Below, piece by piece: positions 1 through 19,926 of a stretch of 20,000 nt of DNA. The stretch's first letter is position 1, and every line of letters begins with the position of its first letter. Position numbers and translations under genes: made by a program. The stretch comes from an uncultured virus (IMG/VR IMGVR_UViG_3300037991_004722). Taxonomy: Duplodnaviria > Heunggongvirae > Uroviricota > Caudoviricetes. The stretch is from positions 53,970-73,969 of the IMG/VR virus record IMGVR_UViG_3300037991_004722; one strand, 5' to 3'. Below the pieces are notes generated by a model. That model was not told where the DNA came from, made no database searches, and saw only the letters and a program-made list of their open reading frames with translations.

Positions 1-56
1 TCCACCTCAAACGCAGGGGGCATCACGCACCCGTCGCACTTTCCGCACTTCTCCAT
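1..56 (-). CDS. 5' end of a Cys-rich hypothetical protein (MEKCGKCDGCVMPLRLRW...), runs off the window
   Basis: ATG at 56-54 overlaps the upstream TGA (TGATG) and follows GGAGGTGAG; CxxCxxC motif. Translated by hand. Confidence 0.6.
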   Translation of the reverse strand, partial: MEKCGKCDGCVMPPAFEV

Positions 57-256
57 CACTCACCTCCTTCGTCTTTGGTGCGCTGCCAGGCAGCAAATAC
101 ATCGCCAAGAGTCTTGCCTTCCGGGTATGACTGCGCGAGATAGTCCTCAGCACGCAGCCCTTTCTGCGGCGTGTCCGAGTACGGGGCACTGGCATCATCA
201 TCATTCCAGTCACACTCATCGTGAATGGTGAGATCGTTTTCGTCTGGTGTGAGCAT
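56..256 (-). CDS. hypothetical acidic phage protein, 66 aa
   Basis: ORF track; TAATG overlap with the upstream gene, GAGGTGAG SD, ends in GGE like its neighbours. Confidence 0.75.
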   Translation of the reverse strand: MLTPDENDLTIHDECDWNDDDASAPYSDTPQKGLRAEDYLAQSYPEGKTLGDVFAAWQRTKDEGGE

Positions 257-951
257 TACTCACCTCTCAGTTTCTTGGTGTTGCCTTGCGAGTCGATGCC
301 CGCGCTCAGGTTCATACTCTTTCCGGCATCGTAGCCAGCGGCACTGTGGCCGTACTCACTCGAAGCCTTTGCGCTGCCGAATGAGAAGTTGCTGTCCACC
401 CACTCGCTCACCGCTTGACTGCGGCTGCGGACCAAGGCAAAGCCCTGCACGTTGTCGCGCTCGGCATCCTTGCGGATGTGGTACAGCTTGTGCCTCAGGC
501 CATCCACTGCGCTGCGCCGGAAGTTGTTGCCGAGTGTGCGCTTGCCCGGCATGCCAGCAGGAAACTGGCTCGTGTACTCACGGGCCTGGTTCTCAATCTG
601 GCGCTCGCAGATAGAATACAGGTACTTCATCAGTTCAATGTCAGTGCGGTGCCCGTAGATGTGCAAGGTCTGGCCAATGTGGTGGCCTGACAAGTAGGCC
701 ATGCGGCAGTTGCAGTGTTGCGCGATGGCGTTGGCAAGGAGCCTGCGCCACACACTTGAACGGGTCTGAATGCTCTGCTGCTCCATTGGGTCATGTTCAG
801 CAGCACGGTCCACGTCGATGCTCGCCATGTCGATGGCGTGGGCGGCCATCATTCGGCTGGCGAGCTTCGCGGCGGTCTCCCCCTCAGGGGTGCCGTCTTG
901 GTTCCGGGCGAGGCGCATCAGCTTTTCAATCTTGGCAATGATTGGGTTCAT
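256..951 (-). CDS. DUF2786-domain protein, 231 aa
   Basis: N-terminus IIAKIEKLMRLA..GTPEGETAAKLASRMMAAHAI matches the DUF2786 pattern (KI.KLL.LA....E...A...A..LM..H.I); the C-terminal W...LA..IA....C, YG...D and AGY.AG motifs are typical of the family; GGAGG SD. Confidence 0.85.
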   Translation of the reverse strand: MNPIIAKIEKLMRLARNQDGTPEGETAAKLASRMMAAHAIDMASIDVDRAAEHDPMEQQSIQTRSSVWRRLLANAIAQHCNCRMAYLSGHHIGQTLHIYGHRTDIELMKYLYSICERQIENQAREYTSQFPAGMPGKRTLGNNFRRSAVDGLRHKLYHIRKDAERDNVQGFALVRSRSQAVSEWVDSNFSFGSAKASSEYGHSAAGYDAGKSMNLSAGIDSQGNTKKLRGE

Positions 952-1118
952 CGCTTGCCTCCTTGGGTGTTGATGGATTGCAGGAGAGCGTCATACGTCT
1001 TCTGGTTTCCGATGATGTCTCGCTCTTTACGAGTCAGGTGTTGAAAGTTGTCGGACACGTCCTCCAATGAGTACCGGAGCAGCGCGTCCTTGATTGCGTT
1101 CAGTTCTTGTTGGGTCAT
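948..1118 (-). CDS. hypothetical protein, 56 aa (MTQQELNAIKDALLRYSLEDVSDNFQHLTRKERDIIGNQKTYDALLQSINTQGGKR)
   Basis: Hand-translated (below ORF-track cutoff); fills the gap exactly and has an ATGA overlap with the DUF2786 gene. Confidence 0.8.
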   Translation of the reverse strand: MTQQELNAIKDALLRYSLEDVSDNFQHLTRKERDIIGNQKTYDALLQSINTQGGKR

Positions 1119-1124
1119 GATTCT

Positions 1125-1153
1125 CCCTTAACCGGTTCGGTGAAGTATGGCAA
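1125..1153 (-). promoter_or_regulatory. putative promoter TTGCCA-N17-TAAGGG
   Basis: Same architecture as the copies at 5831-5859 and 7090-7118; shares CTTGCCATAC..CGAAC..GGTTAAG with the 5831 copy; lies just after a terminator. Confidence 0.6.
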
Positions 1154-1171
1154 GTGTGCAGTTGATGGTGA

Positions 1172-1194
1172 AGGAAAGCCCCCCGAAGGGGGCG
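1172..1194 (-). terminator. putative intrinsic terminator
   Basis: Minus strand GCCCCC-TTCG-GGGGGC followed by TTTCCTT, just after the stop at 1201. Confidence 0.65.
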
Positions 1195-1200
1195 GTTGGT

Positions 1201-1533
1201 TTACTCCTCACCGGATTCGGCGAGCATGTCGGCGAAAGCACGAGCCCAGCAGAGAAGAATCTCGCGGTGGCTCAGAGGCTGCTCGACCCCGTCCTTCGGT
1301 TCCTTCCATGGCAGGACTACCCAAGGGTTCTGTTGGATGCGCTCCCAAGTGTCGGAAGTCAGGAATGCGAACGACCAGCCAGGGTTGTCGGGCGCGGTGA
1401 CCATGACGCTGCTTTCAGGATGCTTGCCAAAGGTGAACAGTGCCGATGCGTCGGGATGCTCGAAGCTCACACCATGGCGAGACATTTGAAGGCGGGACTT
1501 GCGGAAGCCCAGCTTGCTGAGCCGAGCGGACAT
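1201..1533 (-). CDS. hypothetical protein, 110 aa (may start at in-frame ATC 1557)
   Basis: ORF track; co-oriented with the cluster and followed by a terminator. Confidence 0.75.
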   Translation of the reverse strand: MSARLSKLGFRKSRLQMSRHGVSFEHPDASALFTFGKHPESSVMVTAPDNPGWSFAFLTSDTWERIQQNPWVVLPWKEPKDGVEQPLSHREILLCWARAFADMLAESGEE

Positions 1534-1638
1534 TTGACGATTTGTGATGGGTTTGATGGGACACCTCCTGTGTGTCTGGGGTTGGTTGGTTTGCCTCTCA
1601 CCCTACAGAACGAGAGGGATTATTCTCATGGACATAGG

Positions 1639-1878
1639 TCAGTAGTCGTACCCGTCGATGGGTCCGTCTTCGACGGAGTCGAGTTGAGGAAGCGTAAGCT
1701 CCTGCGGGCATCCGCTCTTGCACACTGGCTTCCCATCGTGGATCTCAATCCAGTCTCCGCACTTGCGGCACTTATCTTCGACCTCGACCATGGTCGGGTT
1801 GGGCATGTGGCACTTGCGGCACACATGCAGGTCACCCCAAAATGTATCGTAAGCGTTGCAGCATTCAGTCAACAGCAT
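1639..1878 (-). CDS. Cys-rich, double zinc-ribbon-like protein, 79 aa
   Basis: ECC, CRKC, CRKC and CKSGC motifs; GGAGGTGAG-TGATG coupled start. Confidence 0.75.
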   Translation of the reverse strand: MLLTECCNAYDTFWGDLHVCRKCHMPNPTMVEVEDKCRKCGDWIEIHDGKPVCKSGCPQELTLPQLDSVEDGPIDGYDY

Positions 1879-2177
1879 CACTCACCTCCTTTAGAGAAGC
1901 CGGCGTCCTTGGCGAGGTCCCATGCAGCGTTTCGCAGGTCCGCTTCAGCCTGTGTGTCATGTCTCGGTTCTTTACCGAAGACTTCAACCCACGCGTCAAA
2001 CATCGCCATGTTGGAATCCCACTTTTCGTGAGTCGCGCAACAGCCGTGTCGGTAGTCAGTCGTTGGCAGTGCCGCGTATTTCTTGTTCTGCTCATCAATC
2101 CATCGCAACTGGCTATCGGTGCCCCACGTTTGGATGACACGAATGAATGCATTCGCGAGTTTCTGTACGTCTTCCAT
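1878..2177 (-). CDS. hypothetical protein, 99 aa
   Basis: ORF track; TGATG coupling at both ends; CATH...D.NMAM..AW motif; ends KGGE. Confidence 0.8.
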   Translation of the reverse strand: MEDVQKLANAFIRVIQTWGTDSQLRWIDEQNKKYAALPTTDYRHGCCATHEKWDSNMAMFDAWVEVFGKEPRHDTQAEADLRNAAWDLAKDAGFSKGGE

Positions 2178-2299
2178 CACTCACCTCCCTTGCTAAGTCG
2201 TACGTCTGAATGTTTGCTAAATGCGATGATGAATGGGGCGGCCATGAACAACGGCAGCGCCATGCAGAAGAGGGTGTGAAGGTCGTTGGGGTCAATCAT
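2177..2299 (-). CDS. small membrane protein, 40 aa (MIDPNDLHTLFCMALPLFMAAPFIIAFSKHSDVRLSKGGE)
   Basis: ATG placed after the GGAG of the intergenic repeat; one hydrophobic segment. Confidence 0.7.
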   Translation of the reverse strand: MIDPNDLHTLFCMALPLFMAAPFIIAFSKHSDVRLSKGGE

Positions 2300-2339
2300 T
2301 TGTTGCTCCGGTTGGGGGCTTGCGCCCCAGGTTGAGGGT

Positions 2340-2561
2340 TCACCCTTGGGGGCACTTGGTTCCTTGCGTTGTCTCCCACTCGCGGCAGCCTTCGCAGATG
2401 TAGCCGCCGTCGATTCGGCTCGTGGCGTTGAAGGCGATGGGCTCAAGCAGTGGGTTGCTGCACCCTTCGGTGGTGCATCGGAACTGGTGGGTGTGGTTGA
2501 ACTTGACGATACCGGCAGCGATGGCCGCGGCCAGTCGGGTATTGTCTCGTGGGTAAAGCAT
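2340..2561 (-). CDS. putative Zn-binding hypothetical protein, 73 aa (MLYPRDN...)
   Basis: Start reassigned to the ATG after the repeat SD; CTTEGC and CEGC motifs. Confidence 0.75.
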   Translation of the reverse strand: MLYPRDNTRLAAAIAAGIVKFNHTHQFRCTTEGCSNPLLEPIAFNATSRIDGGYICEGCREWETTQGTKCPQG

Positions 2562-2604
2562 GTTTGCTCCTGTGGGGCACGGGGCCCCGGTTCGGGTTGA
2601 GGGT

Positions 2605-2685
2605 TTAGGCGGTTCGGTTTCTTGCTTCTTCAAGCAATGCCGCGAGTTCTTCCATGGTCCAGTCTGGCGTCGGTCCTCCGGGCAT
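2605..2685 (-). CDS. microprotein, 26 aa (MPGGPTPDWTMEELAALLEEARNRTA)
   Basis: Hand-translated; GAGGAG SD, TAATG overlap, and its stop abuts the intergenic repeat. Confidence 0.6.
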   Translation of the reverse strand: MPGGPTPDWTMEELAALLEEARNRTA

Positions 2686-2858
2686 TAGTCCTCCTCGATG
2701 ACCGTTACGGTCACGGTGTCGGGGTCGGCCTCGCAATACTCGCTGACGTTGTCTTCAAGGGCTGGCTCGCCACGACCGATAGCCGCGACGACGCGAGCCT
2801 TGAGGGTCTCGGGGTCAATGTTTGTGTCAAAGTCAATGGTGATTCGGATGGTGTCCAT
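2685..2858 (-). CDS. acidic hypothetical protein, 57 aa (MDTIRITIDFDTNIDPETLKARVVAAIGRGEPALEDNVSEYCEADPDTVTVTVIEED)
   Basis: Hand-translated; preceded by a repeat with GGAG SD. Confidence 0.8.
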   Translation of the reverse strand: MDTIRITIDFDTNIDPETLKARVVAAIGRGEPALEDNVSEYCEADPDTVTVTVIEED

Positions 2859-2879
2859 GGTATTTGCTCCGGTTGAGGG

Positions 2880-3254
2880 TTAGGCGGGTTCGACTGCGGT
2901 TGCCCAGCGAAACAGTGGCTCAGGGAGGAAGCCGCCTGCCCTGAGGTGTTCGGCCATCTCATACAATGATTGGTAGCGGTCACGATTCTGCCCTCGGTGA
3001 TTCCTTTCATAGCAGGCGTCATACGAGAAATACTTGGCGAATGACGGCTGGCTCTCGTGAATCAAGACAAGCACGGCATTCTCCCCGAGAGTCTCTCCCC
3101 GGTTGCGCCACTCCTCACCGGAGAGAAACGTGACACCCTCCAAGTTCAGGTCCGGTTCGATGGAGGCGATGCGCTCAACGATGCGCGTGGCAGCTTTGAG
3201 TGAGTCGCCGGCCAAGTGCGACAGGTTGGCGGTTCGGATGGTCGATGGAATCAT
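2880..3254 (-). CDS. hypothetical protein, 124 aa
   Basis: ORF track; bounded exactly by two repeat copies. Confidence 0.85.
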   Translation of the reverse strand: MIPSTIRTANLSHLAGDSLKAATRIVERIASIEPDLNLEGVTFLSGEEWRNRGETLGENAVLVLIHESQPSFAKYFSYDACYERNHRGQNRDRYQSLYEMAEHLRAGGFLPEPLFRWATAVEPA

Positions 3255-3299
3255 GGTTGCTCCGGTTAAATGGTGGGGCGCGGGGCCCCGGTTGAGGGT

Positions 3300-3746
3300 T
3301 TAGTAGCCAGCGGCTACAGCGTTGGCGTCGTAGTACTCGTGGCTGTCCTCGGTCCATTCGGGCCAGCCGGGTTGTTTTTCCCAAGTGGTCACACACGCGT
3401 GGGCAGTGGTGCCGTCGTAGTCGGTGAATGCTTCCCACCGTTCACCAGTCGGGCGGTTCACTGTCGCCGATCGAAGCCTGTCCACAGGGCAGAACTGGAC
3501 GAACTGGTTGGACATGTAGCCATCGCAGTCGCTGCCTTCATTGAAGTAGGTGCGGGTGACTTGTTGGCCGTCGTAGGTCCACTCGATGATAGTCCGGTCG
3601 TAGCCCTCATCGGTGGGCGTGAATCGGTGGTGGCGCAAGGTCTGGTCGGGCTTCAGTTCGATGACGACATCGCCGCCGTTCACGTAGTCCTTGAATCGCA
3701 CCTTGGTGGGAAGTTGCAACATGACTGTACACATTCGCATTTTCAT
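3300..3746 (-). CDS. hypothetical protein, 148 aa
   Basis: ORF track; bounded by repeats; TDEGY, DCDG and D..A.AAGY motifs. Confidence 0.85.
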   Translation of the reverse strand: MKMRMCTVMLQLPTKVRFKDYVNGGDVVIELKPDQTLRHHRFTPTDEGYDRTIIEWTYDGQQVTRTYFNEGSDCDGYMSNQFVQFCPVDRLRSATVNRPTGERWEAFTDYDGTTAHACVTTWEKQPGWPEWTEDSHEYYDANAVAAGY

Positions 3747-3788
3747 GGTCGCTCCAATGGGGCGCGGGCCCCGGTTGTGGGTTGGGGT

Positions 3789-3872
3789 TTAGTGGCGCGG
3801 TGTTCCACAGCAACGGCAGCGTGTGCGGGTTCCGCTGTTTACTGCTCCGCACTTGAAGCATTTCCAGTACAT
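3789..3872 (-). CDS. stand-alone RanBP2-type zinc-finger microprotein, 27 aa (MYWKCFKCGAVNSGTRTRCRCCGTPRH)
   Basis: Hand-translated; exact W-x-C-x2-C-x3-N-x6-C-x2-C spacing; bounded by two repeat copies. Confidence 0.8.
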   Translation of the reverse strand: MYWKCFKCGAVNSGTRTRCRCCGTPRH

Positions 3873-3907
3873 GGGGTCTCCAATGGGGCACGAGGCCCCG
3901 GTTAGGG

Positions 3908-4249
3908 TTAGGAAGCGTTGCGTTTGGGCCATCGACCCGTCTTACCGTCTACCAGTTGCCAAAACGTCTGACAGTCGAACTCCACCCAACCAAGGTCGAC
4001 CGCACCCTGAAGAACTTCCTGGGGTGTTTTGCCTTCGGAGTATGTGGGAAACTCGCGGATATCGAACTTCCATGCGTTTGGGCGCGGGTCCATGGTGAAG
4101 AAATACGCGGACGGCAACGTGTAGTCGTCGTCGATGTACGTGTGGTAGATGTTGTATGGAATCACCTGTTGCAGCCCTTCGGGGTGGTCGTCGTATTGAC
4201 GGACGATGCAAGCAAGGTCGGGGGCCATATATTTTTTCAGCCAAGGCAT
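3908..4249 (-). CDS. hypothetical protein, 113 aa
   Basis: ORF track; bounded by repeats. Confidence 0.8.
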   Translation of the reverse strand: MPWLKKYMAPDLACIVRQYDDHPEGLQQVIPYNIYHTYIDDDYTLPSAYFFTMDPRPNAWKFDIREFPTYSEGKTPQEVLQGAVDLGWVEFDCQTFWQLVDGKTGRWPKRNAS

Positions 4250-4303
4250 GGGTCGCTCCGGTGATGATAGTGGGGCACGGGGCCCCGGTGAGGGGTAAAG
4301 GGT

Positions 4304-4612
4304 TTACGAGTGGGCCAGTGCGCTACCAAAGGCGCGATACCATGCGACACAAAGCGGATTCGAGAGTTCAGCTTCGGGCACAGTCCAGTCAACGGGCGCG
4401 GCATCCTGAGCATGCAATGCCGCTGCGCGTATCTTCGCGAGGCTCGCTTGGACGTTGTACACGCTCGCAGGCATGGCCTTGCCGCTGTCTACGTGAGTGA
4501 GGCTGTAGATGCTGCGGCTGCCGGTGATAACCAGACCAGCTACACCTGAGGGGCGAGCCCGCACGGTATCAACGCCGCGCGGTCCATCGGTCGCAATTTG
4601 AACTGTCTTCAT
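4304..4612 (-). CDS. hypothetical protein, 102 aa
   Basis: ORF track; bounded by repeats; YSLTHVDSG motif. Confidence 0.8.
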   Translation of the reverse strand: MKTVQIATDGPRGVDTVRARPSGVAGLVITGSRSIYSLTHVDSGKAMPASVYNVQASLAKIRAAALHAQDAAPVDWTVPEAELSNPLCVAWYRAFGSALAHS

Positions 4613-4639
4613 GGGGTCTCCAGAGTGAGGGGTGAGGGG

Positions 4640-5341
4640 TTAGGCCGCGCGCTTGGTAGCCTTGCCGGGGCTGTGGTCGATGAAGCCAACGACCGGGCCC
4701 GCTTTGGAGCCGTCGCACAACCGGCAGGTGTTGCAGGTTACAATCTCGGGCTGCAGTTGAGCCGGGCAAACGATGCCCCGGTTGCCATCGGGGGTGTCAA
4801 AGGTCCGGCCCTCGAAGTCTTCGGGCAGTACAACCACGGCCCGCCACCCGTCCGCAATGGCGGCATCGGCCTGCTCCATCGTCTCGCATGAGGCCATGAT
4901 ATGACCCTTCCAACGCTTCGCAATGTCCATGGCCCACCCGTGGGTGTAGCCAACCAAGGCGAGCCCTTCGTCCCTGACGGCCTTGCGAATGTACGCCCCA
5001 TCAATAGGGGAGAGGGCCGCCGGGTCGCCGATGGAGCCGAGCCGAACCATGCGAGCGGCCCGCGATGCATTGGCCAGCGCACCCCGGAGGCTGTACCGCT
5101 TACCCTTTGCGTGAGCCTTGACCATCGCGGCATGCGAGAACGACGGGGTCCCATGCTGCGAATAGCAAAGGGGCTTATCTCCACCGCCCTCACCGCCGTG
5201 CTTTTTGTGCAGCAACGGACAGCCGACGGCGCGGCATGAGTCCAGCGATTCCTCACGGGTTGCCCCGATGGCAATGGTCGGGACGTTGCCTGTCTTGATG
5301 TTCTTGGTGGTAGCGGTCGCGAGGTAAGAGGGGAAGGGCAT
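4640..5341 (-). CDS. conserved Cys-rich phage protein, Gp88/DUF7227-like, 233 aa
   Basis: Start at MPFPSY after the repeat SD; motifs N.KTG, C..GCP..CY, RLG..GDP, GYTH.W, MAS.E, GWR, CPAQ...TCNTCRLC, GF..H (family recalled, not searched). Confidence 0.7.
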   Translation of the reverse strand: MPFPSYLATATTKNIKTGNVPTIAIGATREESLDSCRAVGCPLLHKKHGGEGGGDKPLCYSQHGTPSFSHAAMVKAHAKGKRYSLRGALANASRAARMVRLGSIGDPAALSPIDGAYIRKAVRDEGLALVGYTHGWAMDIAKRWKGHIMASCETMEQADAAIADGWRAVVVLPEDFEGRTFDTPDGNRGIVCPAQLQPEIVTCNTCRLCDGSKAGPVVGFIDHSPGKATKRAA

Positions 5342-5363
5342 GGGTGCTCCGGTGGTTTGTGGT

Positions 5364-5534
5364 TTAGTTACGGTCCCAAAGAACTTCGACAAGCGCGCCA
5401 AACAAGTGGACCGAGAGGTAGCCGACCTCTTCATGCGGGGCGTCGAAGTTGTGAAATACGCCGAAGGGTGTTCGGCCTTTGGTGGGTCCATATGAAAGAA
5501 ACGTGAGACGCGAACCGAAAAGGTTGATGGACAT
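5364..5534 (-). CDS. hypothetical protein, 56 aa (MSINLFGSRL...), first gene of the array
   Basis: ATG after ACCGGAGCCCTC; stop abuts a repeat. Confidence 0.7.
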   Translation of the reverse strand: MSINLFGSRLTFLSYGPTKGRTPFGVFHNFDAPHEEVGYLSVHLFGALVEVLWDRN

Positions 5535-5830
5535 GAGGGCTCCGGTGGCCCGTACTGTGGGCCAGTTGTCCCCCCTTTTTGGACAGCGAAAAGTAACGGG
5601 GGGAACGGGGTTTATTTGAAATGGCCTAACCGTCCTGTACCTTTTTCTAAAAAAAGTAAACGGGTATACGGTAAGGGTAGAAAGGGAATTTCGGGGGATT
5701 GAAAAGGTTCGGCAATAGGTACGGGACGGTTGGGACAAATCGAGATTGTGCAGGTTTACCCGTGGGTTTTCGTGGGTCCATGGTTCGGGACAGTTTGAAC
5801 ACTTGGCACACCCCTCCGGTTTACGTACAT

Positions 5831-5869
5831 CACTTAACCACGTTCGCCGGGTATGGCAAGGGGGGCAGG
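5831..5869 (-). promoter_or_regulatory. putative promoter CCTGCCCCCC-TTGCCA-N17-TAAGTG driving the small-gene array
   Basis: 16-bp CCTGCCCCCCTTGCCA identical to the 7113-7128 copy; 17-bp spacer. Confidence 0.6.
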
Positions 5870-6104
5870 GTTCAGGACAGGGTACGGGACACGGGGGCCA
5901 AAGACCCGCCGAAACTCACCGGGAACCGGACAGAATCTGTCACGGGGGAGGGTGCGTCTGGTCGCGCGGGTCGTTCGCGGTCGTTTTTAAAACCCCATCG
6001 GCTTAGCCATATCCAAGGTTACAAGCCGGATATCACGCGCCGGGGTTGACAGGTCAAACGAACCGCTGAGGTATCACGCGAGGGTTGAGATTGAGGCCCG
6101 ACGG

Positions 6105-7083
6105 ACGGAAAAAACCGCGTCAGTCTGAGCTAACCCGCGTTGCCCCTGCATAGTTCGCGGGTGTTGTACGGGTTCCGGGTGAATGCCCCCCAACGGTCAA
6201 GCGTTCCGGGGGCGGTAGAGGTCCGCCACGCGCCGGGCTCAAACCCCCTCGAAACGCAGGGGGAGCCCAGGCGCGGGCTATGTAAACGTGCGCCCTGTGC
6301 TATCGGCGGTGCCAGCCCGGACGCCCGACTGACTGCGTACCCTGAGCGTGTCCCCGTCAGGGAAGGGTAATGGTGAGGAGAGGGGGCCCCTAAGCCCCGT
6401 CTTCCAGTACTTGCGTTCGAACCATTAGGGTGATTCTACTAACGTACCGCTGTCATTTGATACGCTCCATAGCGTGCCCCCACGAGGGGCCGGGGATTCG
6501 AACCCCGCGTCTGTTGACTGCCTCAAAAAGTGGCGGTGATTTTCGCGCTCACCGGGGCGCACTGCTACCCGTGGCCACGGCACACGGGGCCCCCGGATAT
6601 CGCACCGGGGCGGGCGGCTCGTTTTTTAGACTGTGGAGAGCTATCCACCGGCCTTGTTTAGGTGGCCCCTTTAGCGGGGCCGGGTATCGGGTCCCCCTCG
6701 CGTCAGGCTATGCCGCCGGGGGTCATGGTGTCAGGTGTCTTCAATCACCTATGCACATGGGTGGACTCTTCACCGATTCGGCTCACCCGCTTGCTGGGGT
6801 CGTGGCCACTTGACGCTCCTACCTTCGCTCCTGCTGTCGCTCACTTGAGCCCCGACCGTGGCCGGGTTCCTCGCTCGTGTTGTTGCTTGGCTTCGCTTGT
6901 GACTTTCAGCGGGCGACAGAGTCCTCCCCTTAGTTGTCATCGGTGGCCGGGTTCGTGTGCCCGGCTTGCGCCTCGGAATGCTTTGGCCCTGCAGGCCGCC
7001 GCTGATTCGAGTTTGCACCCATTGTCTTATTCGAGATTTGAAAGAGCGTGTCTGGTTTGTTTCCGGGGTGTTTCCCTTTCCAC
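6105..7083 (-). ncRNA. candidate large structured non-coding RNA (~1 kb; boundaries approximate)
   Basis: Upstream promoter; no credible CDS; more than 12 hairpins, nested long-range helices, T-loop CGGGGTTCGAATCCCCG at 6491-6507. Confidence 0.5.
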
Positions 7084-7089
7084 ACAAAC

Positions 7090-7128
7090 AGCTTATGGCC
7101 GTATGACAGGTGTGGCAAGGGGGGCAGG
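7090..7128 (-). promoter_or_regulatory. putative sigma70-like promoter TTGCCA-N17-TAAGCT
   Basis: -35 at 7118-7113 and -10 at 7095-7090; A/T tracts further upstream (7187-7220). Confidence 0.7.
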
Positions 7129-7290
7129 CAAAGAAAGTTTGCTAAATCCAGTGAAAACCAAGGTTGAACCTCGATTATCGCTGGTGAAAAAAAATCTGAT
7201 TTTGTGCCGTTTTTTTTCTATTCGCTGCACTCGCGTGCGCGTGGTTCCTTTTATGCCCCCCCCTTTTTCTGGTTTTCTTTGGTTTTTTCC

Positions 7291-7330
7291 CCTTGCCCCC
7301 CTTGACGGGTGTGGCGGGTGTGACTAAATA
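7291..7330 (+). promoter_or_regulatory. divergent promoter TGCCCCCC-TTGACG-N17-TAAATA
   Basis: Same TGCCCCCCTTG prefix as the minus-strand promoters; T-rich upstream tract; ATG begins 6 nt after the -10 hexamer. Confidence 0.6.
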
Positions 7331-7336
7331 CCGTGT

Positions 7337-7666
7337 ATGACTTTGACTCTCGCCTTTCGCGGCCTCGCCGCAGACTCCCCCCGACAGCGCGCCCGTTGCT
7401 CTGTTACGGGTCGTTTCGTGGCATGGGTCAAGGCCGCCGCGCTCCGCGTTGCAGGTGCCCCCCGTGTGGTGGTGGTGCCGTCTACCGTGGAACCCGATAC
7501 CGCCGATGCTGCCCCCGTGGTGGCCCCCGTGGTATCCGTGGCCGCCGCTATCGCTGCCCCCGTGGTAGCCGTTGCGCGTGCCGTTGCTGCCCCTGTGGTG
7601 GCCGTGGCGTCAACTATCATCGCTCGCGTGGGGCGGTGGTTTCGCCGTGGGGGGTGTACCGTGTGA
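7337..7666 (+). CDS. Ala/Val/Pro-rich low-complexity protein with APVV repeats, 109 aa; probably leaderless
   Basis: ORF track; directly behind a promoter; R..TGRF motif; GCCCC(C/T)GTGGT repeats. Confidence 0.55.
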   Translation: MTLTLAFRGLAADSPRQRARCSVTGRFVAWVKAAALRVAGAPRVVVVPSTVEPDTADAAPVVAPVVSVAAAIAAPVVAVARAVAAPVVAVASTIIARVGRWFRRGGCTV

Positions 7667-7863
7667 AGCGTATGCCATGGCCGCAACCGACCGCCCCCCG
7701 TGGTTTTTTGTGGCGCNNNNNNNNNNGGGGGGGGGGGGGGGGGTGGTGCGTCTCGCTTCCGCTGCTGCCGAAGGCGTCCCCCCCGTGGATTCGTTTTGTT
7801 TTTCGTCTCGGGCCGCGCTGGGTTCCCCCCTGGGGTTTTACGGAAAATAGAGATAATCGGCTA

Positions 7864-7892
7864 TTGACGGACACCTTTCGCAGACATAGAAT
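7864..7892 (+). promoter_or_regulatory. sigma70-like promoter TTGACG-N17-TAGAAT
   Basis: Near-consensus hexamers, followed by GAGGT SD (7901-7905) and ATG 7910. Confidence 0.8.
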
Positions 7893-7909
7893 CGGCATTC
7901 GAGGTATCA

Positions 7910-8875
7910 ATGAATAAATACGTGTGTTTGGCTCATCGCTTTCCTGCGGCGGGTATAGAAGGTGTTCTTGGGGTTCCAGTACAGAGCGAGGCCGAAATAG
8001 AAGAATACAGGTCTCATATGGATGACGTATCGCCGAATCAGACCATCAGGTTTGTTCGTCTGACATCAATACCGGACCATGCGAATAAGCATCTGAAAGC
8101 AGGTGACGTAGTGGTCAAATACGAGGGACTGAGCGAGAAGTTTCTTGATGTTCTTCGTCCAGTAGAGACTGCGTACCTGCTCAGTAAGTACAAGGCCGGG
8201 GATATTGATTGGGAGCATGCGGAGGACATTCGTCGTTATTCGTTGGAGAGCTTTCAGTGGCAGCTTGGCTCAGATGGATACCAGTTGGCGATATCGGACC
8301 CGCATGGTCGTCTTGTTGTTTTGAGGGCGCATCACGGTACTCCGAGGCGTCTTTTTCCGACTGCGTACAGCATCTTGCAGGAAACAGAGAACGACAAGAA
8401 GCTTGTGGCGGATGATCCGTATATTGGTCGTCGTGTGTCGGTTTCTCACAAGCAGAAGTGTGCATGGGCGACAATGCGCTTCATTCACTACTACTTGTTG
8501 AAGTATGGCCCGATTGTGGACTCAAGCGTTCTGTATGAGTTTAAGAAGAAGATACGTCGGCACAATCGCGTATACAGCGACTTACCTAAGTTTGAATTTG
8601 CTAACTTTGTTCGTCTGCATACTCGCAGGACGCACAAGCATTCTCAGGACTTTTGGCGTCGAGTGCGCGTAGAGTACCTGGAAGATCCTGACTCATTGCC
8701 GCGACCGTTGTCGTTTATTGCGTCGAAGCGTTCTGTGCGCTGGGTTCGTCTGACTATGGAGGAAGTTGATCAGGTATTGAACCATGTTGAGTGGGATGAG
8801 TGGAACGAGTTCAGGGATCCGCTTCACTTCTCGAATGTTCGAAATAATTCATCTGGATCTGCGGAGTGGAACTGA
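7910..8875 (+). CDS. hypothetical protein, 321 aa
   Basis: Long ORF with promoter and SD; no family recognised. Confidence 0.85.
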   Translation: MNKYVCLAHRFPAAGIEGVLGVPVQSEAEIEEYRSHMDDVSPNQTIRFVRLTSIPDHANKHLKAGDVVVKYEGLSEKFLDVLRPVETAYLLSKYKAGDIDWEHAEDIRRYSLESFQWQLGSDGYQLAISDPHGRLVVLRAHHGTPRRLFPTAYSILQETENDKKLVADDPYIGRRVSVSHKQKCAWATMRFIHYYLLKYGPIVDSSVLYEFKKKIRRHNRVYSDLPKFEFANFVRLHTRRTHKHSQDFWRRVRVEYLEDPDSLPRPLSFIASKRSVRWVRLTMEEVDQVLNHVEWDEWNEFRDPLHFSNVRNNSSGSAEWN

Positions 8876-9189
8876 TGTTGGACGCCAAGTTTGTATCTCG
8901 CAACTTGAGGGCTGTTTTACGTGAGTGGTATGCGTGGTTGTCTGACAAGGCTACTCATCCAGACGAATGGAGAGCAGTGCCTCATTGGTGCAAGCAAGTT
9001 CCATCGACACTGGACATACCGTGGGCCTTGTATGAACTGGAGAAGCACACGGATAGGCGTCACATGTTGCGTGCATTGTTTACTGTGGTCGACGAGATCT
9101 ACATGTCTTGCGAGACGATTGAGAACGCTCCATCGATTGATAAGTTGAGAAACCATCTTTTGAGTTGGTATGAGGAAGAATATGGGTGA
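8875..9189 (+). CDS. hypothetical protein, 104 aa
   Basis: TGATG coupling with the previous gene. Confidence 0.8.
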   Translation: MLDAKFVSRNLRAVLREWYAWLSDKATHPDEWRAVPHWCKQVPSTLDIPWALYELEKHTDRRHMLRALFTVVDEIYMSCETIENAPSIDKLRNHLLSWYEEEYG

Positions 9190-10262: not shown

Positions 10263-10655
10263 ATGGCCGATTCTTTGGTAAGTTTGTCAAACCCTAGGGG
10301 AAACCTTGTATTTCGCGAGACCGCTGCTACGTCGACGTTGGAGCAGAACGTCTTTGCGAAGGCTGCTGCTACAATTTATGCGATCAAGATAGACGCGACG
10401 GCGAACACGGGCGAAGACGTGTATCTTGCGATTTACGAGAACACATCGGCGACAGCAGCGAACTTGACGGTTGGCACTCATCATCCGATTACAACGATAC
10501 GTTGTCGTGCTGGCAGGACGATTGAGGTTTTGATGCCTTGTGGTCTTGTGGGTTCCAGCAGCAATTATTTGCATGCTTGCGTAAAGACATCGGCTGGCAC
10601 GGCTGGCAACACGTCTCCGACTGGCACGGTTTCATTCACACTTATTGGTGAGTAG
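10263..10655 (+). CDS. small beta-rich putative virion structural protein, 130 aa, paralog of the previous gene
   Basis: GAGG SD; IYAI.ID...YLAIYE...VGT..P...I...GL pattern. Confidence 0.7.
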   Translation: MADSLVSLSNPRGNLVFRETAATSTLEQNVFAKAAATIYAIKIDATANTGEDVYLAIYENTSATAANLTVGTHHPITTIRCRAGRTIEVLMPCGLVGSSSNYLHACVKTSAGTAGNTSPTGTVSFTLIGE

Positions 10656-10659
10656 TCCG

Positions 10660-13600
10660 ATGGCGTCCGAAGATGCCGTATTGATGGGTGGTCTTCGTGG
10701 GTTTCGCTCAGACACGGGCGAGCCTCTGGAAACCCAGATTGAACCTGTAGAATCAAAGAACGTGGATGATCTTCGCGAGCGTTATCGTAATTTGCAGTCG
10801 GTTGATCGTCCTGAGTATCGTGGGTTCAAGGTTCCTGCTGGCATGAACCAGGTTCAGACGGATGCTTGGTTTGCTGAGATTGATGCTCGTGAGGACGAGC
10901 GTGAGCGCAAGGAGTCGTTCTTTCGTTACAGTGCGCCCAAGTTTTTTGCTGAGGGTAGTCAGTATTTATTTGGTGATCCGATCAATGTTACTGGCATGCC
11001 TCGCGAGGAGTTTGAGGAGCAGCGTCGCCTTGAGCGTGAAAAGTACGATCTGGATGAAGTGAAGGGCGAGCCTGAGTTTGTGAAGGACGTTCGTGGTTCA
11101 GGTGTACGTCAGGTTGGTTTGGACTTGATGGACGATCCTGTTGGTACGACTCAAAAGGCTAGGCGTGCATTTGATGAGATGGTTGAGAAGGCTATTTTGG
11201 AGGATGACGTTGAGTCTGCGCGTAATTTGGCTGACATAGCGAGTTTCAAGGATCCGACTGGTGTTTCTGATTTGCTGTCGGCAGTTTCGTCTGCACGCTT
11301 GGCGTATGATCGTCCTGATGATCGATACCGTCATTTGACGGACACGGCTATATCTGGCTTGGCTGCGGCGATACCTTTGGTTGGATCCGGCCTTGTCAAG
11401 CAGATCATACGCGGTGCTCCTGACGCAGCGAAGGCGGCACCTGATGCACCAGCACCCGTATTCGAGGCCGCAGCCGAGCGCATGGTCGAACGCTTGCCCG
11501 ATAAGATTGGTGTTCAGGCGCTTGAGAGTACTTTGGGTCGCAAAAAGAATCCGAAATCGGGTGAAGTTGTTCGATACACGAAAGATGTGAAGGACAAAAA
11601 CACTGGGGAAATCATCCACAAGAAGGGCGACAAGAAGCTTACGCCGTCTGGGGAAGAAATTCTTCATCCTGAGTTCATCTATAAGGACATCTCGGAGAGC
11701 GAGTGGAACGACACAAATTTCGACGACTTCATCAATGCGGCAAAGGCATCGGGCAAAAAGAGCGTCACCAAGGACGAGTTTATCCAGCATCTTGAGGACA
11801 ACAAGGTCCAGATCGAGGAAGTTCGGCTTGTAGAGGGTGCTCCTCCTCCTCAAGAGCTTCAGGATCTGATGCGTAAAAGAGTCGAGGCTTCAAGGTCGTT
11901 GAAATCTGAGTCTCAGGAGTTGGCGAAGATTCTTGCTCCTGGTGAAAACTTTGGAACGCATCGGCACAAGTTTGAGCAAAATGCGTATCACTACCATGGT
12001 TTGTACGTTGATTATTTAGCAAAACATTGGGACGTCGCAGAGAATATGAATCGTGGCGATGTTCCAGACGATATGTGGGAAATTGTTTCCAAGCTTAAAG
12101 ATCTTGAGAATAATGTTCCAATTTCAGACTTGACGGTTGAGCATGGCGCACTGATCACTGAGGTGCGCAATGCGGTGAACGCGAAGCTGGCTGATCCTGA
12201 GTATCTGGAGTTTGCACGTCGCAGGAAGACTGAACTGACATCAGGTAGTAGAAGAACAGAAGCGGAACACAACTCGATGATGGACGATGTTGCACAATTT
12301 GAAAATCTTCAAAGAGTGGGTCGAGCCCTGAACCAAATACCCGAGGCCGAGTCTCGCCTTATTGCCCTGCGTAATTTTCAGTCTTCTCCCAAGTATCAGG
12401 AGTATGCGAGCGTACAGAATCAGTTCCAAAGGAAGCTTGAGGAGTTGACGCCTGAAATTCAGGGTAAAAGACCACAATACGAAATATACACCGTCCCAGG
12501 CGGCGAGGACTACCAAGAGATTCTGCTGACGGTTCCACAAAAGGTGAACAAAGATTTCCTATCTTGGCATAAGTCCATGCTGGATCGAACAATGGGTCCA
12601 CGTTCTGGTACTGGACCTGATCCTGACAGTTATGATTTGTTGCCCGCAGAACAGCAGAAAGCTGCTCGGGCTCAATATCGAACAGAAATGGATAAAGAAC
12701 CGTTTGTCTCTCCTGAGTTCACCGACTCCCACCACGGCCACATCCCCAACGTCATGGTCCACATTCGCACCAAGACCCGGATTGACAGCAAGGGCCGCAG
12801 GATCTTGTTTGTTGAGGAGATCCAGTCTGACTGGCATCAAGCAGGCCGGAAAAGAGGGTATGAAGGTAAATATATTTTAAAAGGTGAAGTTGACGAAGCA
12901 CTAAAAAAACTTGAAGACGCTCAAAAAAACTTGCTCGATTGGATGGCAGAAAATCCCAATGTATCCATCACAGATCAACGACCTGAGCTTGTAAATTTAC
13001 GAGTGAAAGCCAGTGAAGCAGCGGATGGATTGATTCGTCAAGCTCAGGAATCAAACTTAGATATTGGTGTTGGTTCCACTCGAATGGATGATTCTGGGAA
13101 GATCGTTTTCGATACTCCCATATCCGGTGAAATTGAAGTAAGTGCAATTCGCGAATATTCACCAAGATATATCTCTCAAGGTGGAGACGAGGTTCCCAAC
13201 GCCCCCCTAAAAGACACCAAGGAGTGGACGGCCCTCGCCATCAAGCGCATCTTCCGCGAGGCCGCAGAGCAGGGCTACGACGGCGTAGCGTTTAGCCGTT
13301 CGGACGTGATCACGCCTTTGGTGACTTTGCCGAAAGATGAAGCTGNNNNNNNNNNCATGTTTGGAAACCCAGAAGCGTTTCTGGATCGTCTTGCGGAGCT
13401 TAAGCAACTAGGCGGGGAATACGCAGAAGGCGCAGAACAAGCTGAAAACGTGTTTGGCGGCAACCAATACTACTACGACAAGCTCATCCCCAGCATTGCC
13501 AAGAGAGAGACGAAGGCGAAGCAAGGGACGACACTCATTGATGTGGGCGATAAATCCCTCGAAGTCCCCTTCTTCGAACTCACCGACAAAGTCAAAGACC

Positions 13601-16600
13601 GGGTCATCAAGCCCCAGAAGCTGTACAGCGTTGCATTGCCTGGAATCGCCATAGGAGCCGCCGCAGCGGAGGAAGAGGAGCTTTCAGCGGCTGCCGCTCT
13701 GGGAGCGATTGGGCTGGGTGGCATGGCCCTGTATAAGGGTATGAAGGGTGCTCGTGCTGCGAAGCTTTCAACTGCTGGATCCACTGATCCTCATTTGGTT
13801 CCAAAGTCGGAATGGAAAAAATCAATCGACCGAGAGGAGCTTGGCCCGAAAGTCGATAATTCTCGACGGTATGTGGCCGCGATTGCGGACGAGCTTGATG
13901 ATTTGCCATCTGCAATGGAGAAGTATGGCCGCGACTTCGCGTATGAGGTGCCTGAGCTTGTTCGCAAGATGACTGGAATTAAGCCAGATGACAAGGTGAA
14001 GATCTACAGGGCTATCTCTGCTGATGATCCAGCCGATGGTATTTTGCCGGGTGATTGGGTGGCGCTGGACAGATCTTATGCTGAAATGCATGGATCTTCA
14101 GGGTACGGCGATGTTGGGTCTAAAATCGTAGAGCTTGAGGTTCCAGCGAAAGAAATCGTGTGGGCGGGAACCTCTGCTGATGAGTGGCACTATGCTCCTC
14201 TTTCTGCTCGCGACAACACCGTTAAATCGGCTCATGAGGCTTTCGTAAAGGATGCCATTCGTGAGGGTAAAGAGGTTCCTGAAGAGGTTCTAAAGGACTA
14301 CCCAGACCTTCGTGCTGCTGCCGACGTAGCCAAGCCCCCCGCCGCCAAGGTTGCTCGTGCCGCAACGGCAACAGCCAAAGGAGAGTCTTACTTTGACCCC
14401 GACAAGCTTTCCCAGCTTAAAAATCTGGTGGAGAAGCCTCGTCGGCAAGAAAACCTTATTTACATGTCTCCTGATGAGTTTTTGTCGTTAGCAGAACCGT
14501 TGAGCAAGCCAACCGCAGACAAGGCGGAGCGTGTTGCTGGCCTTCTGGAGCGCGGAGAGAAGTTTAACAGCGTCCCATATTTAAATCTGGATGAGTCTGG
14601 ACAGATATTCAATCATGAAGGCCGCCATCGTGCGATGGCGCTGAAGAAGCTTGGCGTTGAAAAGATGCCTGTATATTTGCATTCCGATGATATTCGTTGG
14701 AACGAGCAGGTACTGGGTAAGGGTGATGCTTCTTACTATGTTGAGAATTTGCCGAAGCAGTTGATTGGCCAAGACGGTAAGACCAAAATCAAGTCACCTT
14801 TCCATACAGAGGGGCCAAACCGAGGCAAGCCTCTGCCCGAGTACTCTGCCGACGCACCCAAGCCCCCCGCCTCAGGACTCAGTGACTTCGAGCGTGCTCA
14901 GCTTGGAACCCAAAAAGAGGGAGCCAAGTACCCATTCATCACTGAGGAGAACTGGCCGATTCTTCGTGAGATGATTCTCGGCAAAAAGACCAAAAGCAGA
15001 AGCTACAAGCAGACGGAGACATTTGGTCCTCTTGACCCTGAGCTTACGGCATACACGCCAGGTGAGACCCTGAAGCTTCTTTCAAACCCGAAGATTGTAA
15101 ATTTTCATAATAAGGTTTCTAACTACAAGATTCCTGATGAATACAAGACGGTTGTGTTTGTTCCGTGTGCCGCATCAAAGCCATGGGGTGCTGCTGCATG
15201 CAGCGGTAACTACTACCCAGCTTACAATAAGATTTTGAAGGGTGTTGAGTCTGGTGAGATTCCCGGCCCGGTTTTCTTCGCAACGATCAGTGAACCGCTG
15301 GGAATCGTTCCTATGGACATGTGGGACGATTTCCCGGCATACGATGTTCCCGGCTTGTTTGGCAATGATCCTCAGCGCACTGGAATGTTTACAGCGGACT
15401 GGAACAAGTCTCAGTTCGGTCAGCGATACATGATTCCTTTCGACAAAGAGGCCAAGGATAAGTCGATTGATATCTTGGGTGATGTTGTCGCTAAGTTTGT
15501 CGAGAACAATCAATCACCTGACCGTCGCTTCATCTCGTTTGTAGATGCGAAGGACATGGGCTCAACGACGCACTCGCTAATGCTGGAGCGCGCAGAAAAG
15601 ACGTTGGATCAAGAAATCGTCCCGTCTAGCCTTCGGTTTGGAAAGACTGATCCTGAAGCATCTCGTCCCGGTGCAAAAGCCACATACGACCATATTAAAA
15701 AGATTTTGGTCGAGACGGATGCTGCCCGAACCCCCGCCTCCGAAGACGCTTTCGGTGCAAGATACGCAGGTGAGACTGCACAATACACTTTCACAGCCCC
15801 ATCGAAGTTGCCCGAGACACCTGACGAGATTCAGGCGGCGTTTTCGGAAATGAACCGGATTCAGCGTGGCGCTCCAGAGTCAGCAATGGAGTCTTTTCAA
15901 ATGAGGTTACCGGGTCAATCGCCTGCTGGCTATTTAGCTGAACATATTGGAGATCTCACGGCGCGGCTGGGTCACCGTGCATATGGTCCGGTATCTGAGA
16001 AGGTTCGTAATACGCATGGCGATTTGCTGACGGGCTTTGAGACGCCGCCTTTGAAAGATGTTTTGAGTGACAAAAGTTATCGCAAGAAGCTTTTGGATAA
16101 GGGTTACGAAAGATACTCTCAACTGGAGAGTTTACCGCCGAAGACTCGCGATGAGTATGTGAAGGAGTTTGACGAGTATCTGAGTAACTACGCCGATAAG
16201 CACCGAAACATCCCTGTTTACAATGAGGTTCAAAGGCTCGCGAATGACGCGGCTATTGCGCTTGGTGAGCAGCGATACACTGATGTTCGCGATTCTTTGG
16301 CTAAGCTTCAAAAGTACATTGATGAAGGCGAAGAACGATTCAAGGCCCGCATGTCATGGATTGAGCCAGAGTTTGCTCGTTTTCCGGGTGGCGAGACCCC
16401 CCCCGGCAAGGCAGTCAAAACAGAGTTGCCTGATTTCTCCGCTGAGTACAAAGAAGCGAAGGAAATGCAAGATTTGATTGAGCGTTTGTCGGCCAGTAAA
16501 AAAGCATCAGAGCAACAAGACTTTTTGGATGCAATACTTAAATCACACGAAGCCAAGCCCCCCGCCGCCTCAAAGCTTCCTGAAGAGGGCAACCCCAACC

Positions 16601-19393: not shown

Positions 19394-19926
19394 TGTTTTT
19401 TTATGATCATGCAATGAGCCGCGATGACTTTATGGATCACCACCATGAACCAGAGCCAATGGGTGAAATTGATATGATGGACGGCTTGCGCGCCATGGCT
19501 TTGTTCAAGCGCAACCCTGGTCCCCTTGACCCCATGGACATCAGCCAAGACGTAAAGGAGGAGCTTTCAACAGCCCCTACAGCCTTTATGGAGCTTTGTG
19601 CCGATGGGTTTATCTCTGATGGGCTAAAGCGAGAGATTGAGCAGATGATCAAAGATCGCACCTTTTACAGCGATCAAACTGAAAGTCGGCTTCCAAGTAG
19701 CTTCATGCTGACTTTTACTGGGCCTGAAGTTCACATGAGGGACGGATATTCGTACCAATATGAATACGGCAACCCAAAAAAAAAGAACATCCCCACGAAC
19801 CCAAAGCTGTACGCCCGAGTAAAGGCAGAGGCCAAGCGTAAGTTTGATGTGTACCCCAGCGCTTACGCAAACGCATGGCTCGTACGCGAGTACAAGAAGC
19901 GTGGCGGCGGCTACCGGAAGGGGTAG
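19393..19926 (+). CDS. hypothetical protein with C-terminal DUF5872-like basic domain, 177 aa
   Basis: TGATG coupling; PTNPKLY.RVK.EAKRKF.VYPSAYA..W.V.EYKKRGGGY. Confidence 0.7.
   Translation: MFFYDHAMSRDDFMDHHHEPEPMGEIDMMDGLRAMALFKRNPGPLDPMDISQDVKEELSTAPTAFMELCADGFISDGLKREIEQMIKDRTFYSDQTESRLPSSFMLTFTGPEVHMRDGYSYQYEYGNPKKKNIPTNPKLYARVKAEAKRKFDVYPSAYANAWLVREYKKRGGGYRKG

Follow-up and report, generated by a model that had tools for sequence, protein, structure and literature searches.

A probable new family of large structured noncoding RNA at a fixed locus of uncultured marine phages

The RNA II of ColE1 is a structured replication pre-primer of approx. 550 nt, ROOL RNAs are several hundred nucleotides in length, and the immunity and antitermination elements of phages are usually located at the head of an early operon. 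According to PMC12286853, GOLLD and ROOL are encoded in phages and prophages, and their assemblies are held together by kissing loops; the conserved loop-loop contacts of ROOL proved to be formed between chains, and GOLLD has a conserved 3' region and a linker that sometimes carries tRNAs. Here, these systems are compared with a locus in a 20,000-nt stretch of DNA (hereafter, the window; positions 53,970 to 73,969 of the IMG/VR record IMGVR_UViG_3300037991_004722, an uncultured virus of the Caudoviricetes). The original prediction, made from the sequence of the window, placed a large structured noncoding RNA (ncRNA) with a promoter of its own on the minus strand, within approx. 1 kb devoid of a credible gene. 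Covariation, a strand signal from G-U pairs, the lack of a coding signal and a promoter-like site in fixed position bear this out, and there can be little doubt that a real structured RNA gene has its core at 7083-6528 of the minus strand. In all likelihood, the RNA also represents a new family. The favoured reading as a whole, to which a probability of approx. 0.55 may be given, is that of a stand-alone gene for a large ncRNA that would act in trans through its fold, along the lines of GOLLD and ROOL.

The comparative evidence comes from homologs that were reached by several routes. A relative of the DUF7227 gene (4640-5491) led to locus L001, in which 7136-6516 of the window is matched at 81.6% identity. 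A 21-nt pattern derived from the most conserved stretch retrieved six metagenome contigs, of which five are homologs, namely L029 (99.7%, the same phage), L030 (92.4%), L033 (91.9%), L034 (92.8%) and L032, the same variant as L001, and a model of one RNA domain found L080 (84%). Throughout the conserved block 7114-6525, identity is 82-93% in L030, L033, L034, L001/L032 and L080. In L030, the RNA is 92.4% identical vs. 86.9% and 71.2% for the upstream and downstream flanks, respectively. Among the other matches, L031 (metagenome pattern match) was rejected as a chance occurrence, as was L036 (genome contigs), which lies within a coding region; a 16-mer pattern gave 17 loci, of which one is a homolog and the others are chance. 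A gapped pattern returned nothing beyond one viral contig already found, the 321-aa neighbour gave no related loci as a query against viral contigs, and BLAST of 5700-7400 found no match in 50,697 phage records. Nor did full-text searches of the literature yield a description of this RNA, although the supplements of candidate-motif papers could still list the motif.

For these sequences, RNAalifold predicted 156 pairs (five sequences) and 147 pairs (six sequences), with 17 and 22 both-side changes, respectively. The structure was curated to 119 pairs in 21 helices, and a cell was defined as one pair in one sequence, giving 595 or 714 cells for the two sets. With five sequences, 99.5% of the 595 cells are paired and 17 pairs are changed on both sides, whereas the shuffles give 5.0 +/- 1.6 (0 of 500) and the slid controls 0-2; with six, 98.7% of the 714 cells are paired, and 20 both-side changes compare with 7.5 +/- 1.8 (0 of 500) and again 0-2. 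Thus, a multi-domain fold of approx. 20 helices, closed by long-range helices, is maintained by compensatory substitutions. The same pairs reveal the strand: 592 of the 595 cells are standard pairs when read on the minus strand vs. 564 on the plus strand, and the 28 G-U cells that make up the difference identify the minus strand as that of the RNA.

The features of the locus are collected in Table 1. The best-supported element is the long-range helix P2, with seven compensatory pairs in L001 and no broken pair among five sequences; L080 adds one A-C mismatch. In P13, the four Watson-Crick types are CG, GC, UA and AU, and a second pair of this hairpin is changed on both sides in L080. All the local inverted repeats listed in the original prediction exist in the sequence, and their standing in the alignment differs. 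Changes on both sides favour AGGTG/CACCT, GGCCCC/GGGGCC, GTGGA/TCCAC, CGGTGA/TCACCG and the long GCGCC..GGGCTC stem. GCCGGG/CCCGGC (with one G-U change only), CCCCGG/CCGGGG and CCCGTG/CACGGG do not vary in type A, the type to which the window belongs, and are neither supported nor contradicted there, and CGGGG-TTCGAAT-CCCCG, GCCCC/GGGGC and ACGCT/AGCGT fall within an insert specific to the window and hence are without comparative support. The GCTC-aagt-GAGC hairpin has to be abandoned, as two of its four pairs are lost in L001, and GCTC pairs instead with GAGC at 6876-6873. Likewise, neither of the two nested long-range helices that had been proposed survives: GGACTCT/AGAGTCC meets a one-sided change in L001, and CGCCCGCT/AGCGGGTG meets one in L033 and in L080; it is P2 that holds instead. 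As for the 12-mer GAACCCGGCCAC, both copies (6858-6869 and 6943-6954) are present, but they are not kept as a repeat in L001. At the 5' end, L089, a type B homolog, has CGG-AAACA-CCG, i.e., a both-side change at the outer pair of the 5' hairpin. This hairpin is mutually exclusive with a tentative 5'-3' closing helix, 7078-7074/6532-6528.

Table 1. Coordinates of the RNA locus and its divergent neighbour in the window (types A, B and C are the diverged RNA types found at the locus)
Feature	Position	Strand	Observation or basis
-35-like hexamer TTGCCA	7113..7118	-	Read in the sequence; homolog alignment; putative promoter element
-10-like hexamer TAAGCT	7090..7095	-	Read in the sequence; homolog alignment; putative start near 7083
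Core of the structured RNA, type A, approx. 556 nt, at least 21 helices	6528..7083	-	Conserved block and curated 119-pair structure
5' hairpin GGG-AAACA-CCC	7066..7076	-	Pairing potential in all type A and type B sequences
P2 long-range helix, 5' strand	7009..7025	-	Partner 6768-6755
P4 hairpin GCCGGG/CCCGGC, ACGAA in loop	6946..6965	-	Unvaried in type A except for one G-U change
P7 hairpin, outer GAGC/GCTC, inner CCCGGC/GTCGGG, CACG loop 6860-6857	6847..6876	-	Three both-side pairs
P10 hairpin CCC-AGCAAGC-GGG	6786..6798	-	GGAC/GTCC instead in L033 and L080; two both-side pairs
P2 long-range helix, 3' strand	6755..6768	-	Partner 7025-7009
P11 hairpin TAGGTG/CACCTG	6732..6751	-	Two both-side pairs (L030, L034)
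P13 hairpin GGCCCC/GGGGCC	6664..6681	-	One pair in four Watson-Crick types
P14 hairpin AGGC/GTCT and GTGGA/TCCAC	6628..6654	-	One both-side pair
P16 hairpin CCCGTG..GC-CGTG-GC..CACGGG, CGUG loop 6579-6576	6568..6588	-	Unvaried in type A
P17 hairpin CGGTGA/TCACCG, then CCAC and T-run 6529-6525	6525..6554	-	One both-side pair (L001, L080)
Variable insert, core to 3' hairpin, approx. 238 nt	6287..6524	-	Missing in L030 and L033
3' element: ACATAGCC, long hairpin, then GGCGGACC	6220..6283	-	In types A, B and C
Small conserved protein gene, 109 aa, divergent neighbour	7337..7666	+	tblastn; clusters

Related phages hold diverged types of the RNA at one and the same locus. A covariance model of 6625-6754 (R1), a domain of type A, matched once in record G000, in G001 and in one of 39 capsid-related records, and in none of the five relatives that are at least 90% complete; a second copy in the genome was not found, and G002 and G003 gave no match. 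The RNA occurs once per genome. The patchy presence that these matches seemed to indicate was rejected, because the domain has diverged and types B and C sit at the same locus. This locus was followed through the rightward 321-aa gene, a marker found in five of five and eight of 29 further records, and 15 loci were inspected. Type A is present in G000, G001 and G026, type B in G009 and G028 (with G007 sharing the 3' part), and type C in G015, G022 and G021; G031 and G032 share only the 3' hairpin block, and nothing recognisable is found in G033, G037, G038 and G041. In one type C locus (L087:860-1240), four repeats of approx. 20 nt (AAACGCTGTACGTCTCTGCAT-like), one of them inverted, lie just upstream of the RNA promoter.

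Structures were compared for types A and B, the latter represented by L088 and L089, whose RNAs are 75.7% identical and differ on both sides in 15 of the 149 pairs predicted for them. The two types share the 5' leader and, ahead of a long-range helix, CGAATAAGA; the ACGAAC, CACG, CGUG and terminal hairpins are likewise common to both. The type B analogue of P2 is a helix, ATAGACGG/CCGTCTAT, directly after the shared CGAATAAGA, and that of P4 is a CGCGG/CCGCG stem in the matching place with ACGAAC in its loop. The two apexes, CCACGG (P7) and CCGTGG (P16), are each present in all 12 RNA-bearing loci of types A-C, and the stems that carry them vary: those of P7 in types B and C are CCGC/GCGG, CCCCC/GGGGG, CTGC/GCAG and TGC/GCA, and those of the P16 apex also differ across types, e.g., CAGC/GCTG vs. 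CCGC/GCGG. In each of the 12 loci, the CCACGG hairpin lies approx. 290-420 nt upstream of the CCGTGG hairpin, and the two apexes are complementary. A loop-loop contact between CCACGG and CCGUGG, within one molecule or between copies, can be proposed tentatively, at somewhat less than even odds.

Downstream of the core, the variable part and the conserved part of the 3' region behave differently. In place of the window's insert, L001 and L034 carry an unrelated sequence of approx. 170 nt. The insert contains a T-loop-like GGTTCGAATCC motif, a canonical-looking T-arm, CGGGG-TTCGAAT-CCCCG, and a second motif, GGTTCGAAC. Its tRNA-like fold is only a sub-threshold one (Rfam tRNA-Sec, 20.7 bits vs. 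a cut-off of 47), and ARAGORN matches it only at relaxed settings, with mismatched stems. The 3' hairpin, in contrast to this insert, is conserved: nine of its 20 predicted pairs are changed on both sides among seven sequences, and its G-U variants fit the minus strand. Weaker DNA matches to the 3' element occur in L093 and L096. In type B, the RNA of L088 is followed by a cassette (L088:1564-1741) framed by a direct repeat of ACATAGCCGCCGC, an arrangement that suggests an insertion, or a hot spot of recombination, where the core meets the 3' hairpin.

The two promoter-like hexamers named in the original prediction are present with the 17-nt spacer between them. In the homologs, the -35 at the same distance reads TTGCCA, TTGCAC or TGGACA, the spacer to the -10 is 17 nt, and the -10 at the same place reads TATATT, CATCTT or AATCTT and is followed by the conserved TTTGTGTGG. 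The position and the 17-nt spacing are therefore constant across the alignment while the hexamers themselves drift, and the site is a plausible sigma-70-like promoter (7118-7090) for the RNA, although a consensus promoter scan did not list it. The minus strand has a similar motif, TTGCCAYAC...TAAG, at 5859 and at 1153 as well. The first of these belongs to a second promoter-like site (TTGCCA/TTGACA...TAAGT, 5859-5831), conserved in L030, L033 and L001, and thus the downstream genes need not rely on the promoter of the RNA. The succession of core, variable linker and conserved 3' hairpin suggests that the transcript spans approx. 7083 to 6220. A weak hint of expression is provided by one marine RNA library, in which a 255-nt contig covers 6812-7056 with nine differences, the sole coverage within 4500-9000. 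Three other RNA libraries gave no coverage, which, like the gaps in the first, does not speak for the absence of a transcript.

The source record, of which the window is the final 20 kb, is 73,969 bp long and 100% complete by CheckV. PHROG and Pfam scans identify a phage, with a large terminase, a major head protein and an internal virion protein, and also with SSB, two helicases, a primase, RecT, RecE, a methyltransferase and RusA; the genome encodes giant proteins of 2,479 aa and 2,243 aa, and no integrase or repressor was recognised in these scans. Identity of the capsid protein to any deposited phage is no more than 21-24%, which indicates an uncultured lineage, and the contigs related to the phage are of marine metagenome origin. 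The RNA locus itself is a noncoding stretch of approx. 1.5 kb (7120-5560) with leftward replication and recombination genes on one side and rightward genes on the other, bordered on both sides by arrays of short DNA boxes. On the left, all five GTCCYNNACC boxes of the window lie in 5632-5890 (1.14 expected) and surround the promoter-like site at 5859-5831; on the right, all five CCCCCGTGG boxes lie in 7512-7788 (0.20 expected), and three of the five exact copies are within the 109-aa gene. Looser copies occur nearby, and the arrays may be operator or iteron sites.

The divergent 109-aa gene was found by tblastn in 12 of 18 loci examined, and its product forms 84 clusters in a large protein collection, with no Pfam or PHROG family. 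The protein is small and arginine-rich; its N-terminal 46 residues (M..LAF..L.A..PRQRARC..TGRFVAW...LR.PGAPRVVV) are strongly conserved across these clusters and nearly invariant among 24 aligned relatives, and the remainder is a variable Ala/Val/Pro-rich stretch. An AlphaFold2 model (mean pLDDT 56.5) was too poor for a structure search. Neighbourhood and co-occurrence are what may connect this gene with the RNA. Upstream of it, TTGACG (7302-7307) is followed after a 17-nt spacer by TAAATA (7325-7330), which ends 6 nt before the ATG; the site is absent from the promoter-scan list, and its spacing suggests that the mRNA might be leaderless. Ten N followed directly by 17 G (7718-7743) lie between the 109-aa gene and a rightward promoter, TTGACG-17-TAGAAT (7864-7892), and may represent a masked stretch or a weak point of the assembly.

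Some further properties of the genome may be mentioned. GC content is 55-64% over positions 1-8000 of the window, 42-54% in the rest of it and 43-54% in the first 50 kb of the genome. Positions 1-8000 also hold many overlapping open frames with few family matches, and this early or accessory region appears to be compositionally distinct. The DUF7227/phrog_2554 protein encoded at 4640-5491 on the minus strand has distant relatives (27-31% identity) in roseophages and cyanophages and, close to the right genome end, in many mycobacteriophages and Gordonia phages. The 2,243-aa giant frame (10645-17376, plus strand) gives only weak matches, one of residues 1101-1188 to the PHROG of a ParB C-terminal domain and one, below the cut-off, to DUF5591. 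Finally, the first 40 nt of the genome (C1:1-40) reappear at approx. 19850-19890 of the window, after which the sequences diverge; both copies are at junctions of DUF5872-like genes, and the duplication may reflect tandem paralogs or be a trace of how the contig was opened.

A working model of the locus can be outlined from these data. The RNA would be made leftward from the promoter at 7118-7090, through the core and the variable linker to the 3' hairpin. The stable product would then act in trans through its three-dimensional fold, by analogy with GOLLD and ROOL, and this mode of action is slightly favoured over that of a cis leader. The complementary apexes of P7 and P16 would contact each other, either within a molecule or between molecules; self-assembly of the RNA is an unlikely outcome, if one that the second arrangement would allow. 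A more speculative proposal, about as improbable as self-assembly, combines these elements: the locus would encode a new class of ornate phage RNA that self-associates or locks its halves via the CACG and CGUG loops, its diverging interior would be a specificity determinant under diversifying selection, and it would possibly serve RNA-based incompatibility, superinfection exclusion or counter-defence, perhaps together with the 109-aa protein.

Several observations weigh against such a stand-alone, trans-acting RNA. Identity among the type A homologs is nowhere below 82%, so that most of the compensatory changes come from a few lineages (L001, L080 and L033); many of the helices show no variation at all. 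L080 also has one mismatch in each of the helices 6919-6913/6840-6834 and 6902-6899/6844-6841. The density of hairpins, on which the original prediction had relied, proved to be a poor argument, as folding of the minus strand is no better than that of shuffled sequences: z is -1.03 for 6105-7085 (3 of 20 shuffles equal or better), -0.90 for the core (20 of 100) and -1.01 for the 3' domain (34 of 200), and the plus strand folds better than the RNA strand (z = -2.15). The complementarity of the two apexes rests on unvaried sequence and hence has no covariation behind it, and the CACG and CGUG loops could each be a protein site instead. The contig from the RNA library carries no strand or end information and could stem from DNA carry-over, and both ends of the transcript, which probably reaches the conserved 3' hairpin (6283-6220), are placed by sequence. 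A terminator scan found no canonical minus-strand terminator in 7100-5430, and the T-run after P17 is reduced to just three T in L030 and L033, which makes it a doubtful terminator. With no convincing terminator before the downstream genes, read-through and hence a role in cis are possible. There is also no tRNA gene in the window, unlike in many GOLLD and ROOL loci.

Folding energy equal to that of shuffles, together with long plus-strand frames (6662-7327, 221 aa, in the window; 409 aa in L001), would be expected if the locus held no functional RNA, being either a GC-rich spacer with chance hairpins or a protein-coding gene on one of the strands. Such a reading is scarcely credible, as the 20 both-side changes and the conservation of the RNA above its flanks would remain unaccounted for. 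Excess stability over shuffles is not needed for membership among structured ncRNA genes, and although a fold no better than shuffled sequence had been named with the original prediction as a ground for rejecting it, the covariation overrides the folding-energy result. As for the open frames, the plus strand is poor in A (AT skew of -0.37 over 6501-7000), which alone removes stop codons and leaves long frames; variable columns are spread evenly over the codon phases (43/48/43, p = 0.83), every indel in the alignment is 1 or 2 nt long, the frames shift between homologs and are not preserved in L001, and none has a Pfam or PHROG match. Thus, the codon-level conservation that would have spoken for a protein gene was not found. 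Another suggestion, that the RNA is a very divergent member of GOLLD, ROOL, transfer-messenger RNA (tmRNA), RNase P RNA or the group I/II introns, beyond the reach of current models, fits its size and phage context, the conserved 3' part and variable interior described for GOLLD (PMC12286853), and the tRNA-like T-arm of the insert. Nonetheless, it is very improbable. Rfam 15 gave no match in the whole 20 kb at the gathering score, nothing relevant in 5500-7600 at E up to 10 (where the best result was the sub-threshold tRNA-Sec) and no match in four homolog loci (L030, L033, L034 and L032) at E up to 5; GOLLD, ROOL, tmRNA, RNase P RNA, group I/II introns, HEARO and OLE were without a match at any threshold used. 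The remark that the RNA cannot be assigned to a known family by eye therefore stands. ARAGORN at default settings finds no tRNA or tmRNA gene in the window, and neither flanking exons nor an intron-encoded protein is present.

The main rival, less probable than the trans-acting RNA and still to be taken seriously, is that of a leader that acts in cis on the leftward early operon and would function by attenuation, by processive antitermination or by processing to an immunity RNA, as in HK022 put, P4 CI or P1 c4. It would explain why the RNA heads the leftward gene block straight behind its promoter, why no canonical terminator is found, and why the RNA continues past the shortened T-run into the 3' hairpin and then into more conserved noncoding sequence; the occurrence of divergent types at a single regulatory locus is also reminiscent of immunity regions. 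However, the first downstream gene is preceded by its own conserved promoter-like site (5859-5831), the downstream genes vary among homologs while the RNA persists, no integrase or repressor is recognised, and the fold is far larger than that of cis antiterminator RNAs (approx. 70-120 nt). Antisense complementarity is also at chance level, with seven hits of at least 9 nt downstream (4.2 in shuffles) and five in the rightward transcripts (4.4 in shuffles), the longest match being 9-10 nt vs. a shuffle mean of approx. 10. It is improbable, though less so than a divergent known family, that the RNA is a replication-origin transcript, i.e., a pre-primer like ColE1 RNA II beside iteron-like boxes, whose types set replicon specificity. 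Its length is comparable to that of RNA II, it adjoins the helicase, primase, RecT and RecE genes, localised box arrays (GTCCYNNACC and CCCCCGTGG) flank it, and four 20-nt repeats precede the RNA of L087. Yet an origin at the locus is indicated neither by the cumulative GC skew nor by any AT-rich stretch for unwinding, an antisense partner RNA and an RNase H-type site were not identified, and the small protein gene contains three of the five exact CCCCCGTGG boxes as coding sequence for an A-P-V-V repeat. Moreover, an origin element should be universal, whereas the type A model matches none of the five relatives that are at least 90% complete: G009 and G015 hold types B and C, G032 shares no more than the 3' hairpin block, and nothing is recognisable in G033 and G038. 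A stand-alone RNA that would act in trans through its fold is thus preferred over both.

The large structured RNAs of phages, such as GOLLD and ROOL, comprise few classes, to which no function has yet been assigned, and an unrelated family would widen this set and offer natural sequence variants for structural work. The family considered here has several useful traits, namely its occurrence in abundant uncultured marine phages, a putative promoter of its own, a fixed position, diverged types with a common architecture and a complementary pair of loops. It also leads to a concrete hypothesis, that of a loop-loop contact or assembly, and to the question of whether such RNAs typify the early regions of phages.

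Compared with the known systems, the RNA resembles HK022 put, P4 CI RNA and P1 c4 RNA in that it heads an operon and immediately follows an early promoter, but it exceeds them five- to eightfold in size, a separate promoter-like site serves as a candidate promoter of the downstream genes, and its complementarity to downstream target sites is not above chance. Like ColE1 RNA II, it is structured, approx. 550 nt long and transcribed toward a region with replication-related features, and replicon specificity would be consistent with types that diverge in sequence but retain their architecture; unlike for RNA II, the analysis revealed neither an origin signature nor an equivalent of the antisense RNA I nor an RNase H site, the folding is far more elaborate, and in four of the 15 related loci inspected no RNA of any type was recognised. 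From ROOL, it differs in that it matches no Rfam model, is known so far from one clade of uncultured marine phages and occupies a fixed locus between divergent operons rather than a site near tRNA islands; both are phage-encoded RNAs of a similar size class with many helices, a long-range closure and no identified protein partner. With GOLLD, no correspondence of sequence or helices was established, no match to the Rfam model was obtained at permissive thresholds, and the window has no tRNA gene. Going by the description of GOLLD in PMC12286853, both RNAs have a conserved 3' part and a less conserved remainder, and both have a variable linker, with tRNAs at times in GOLLD and a T-arm-like motif in the insert of the window; the assembly of GOLLD centres on kissing loops, and the RNA described here has two conserved complementary loops. 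Both are large, elaborately folded, phage-encoded ncRNAs.

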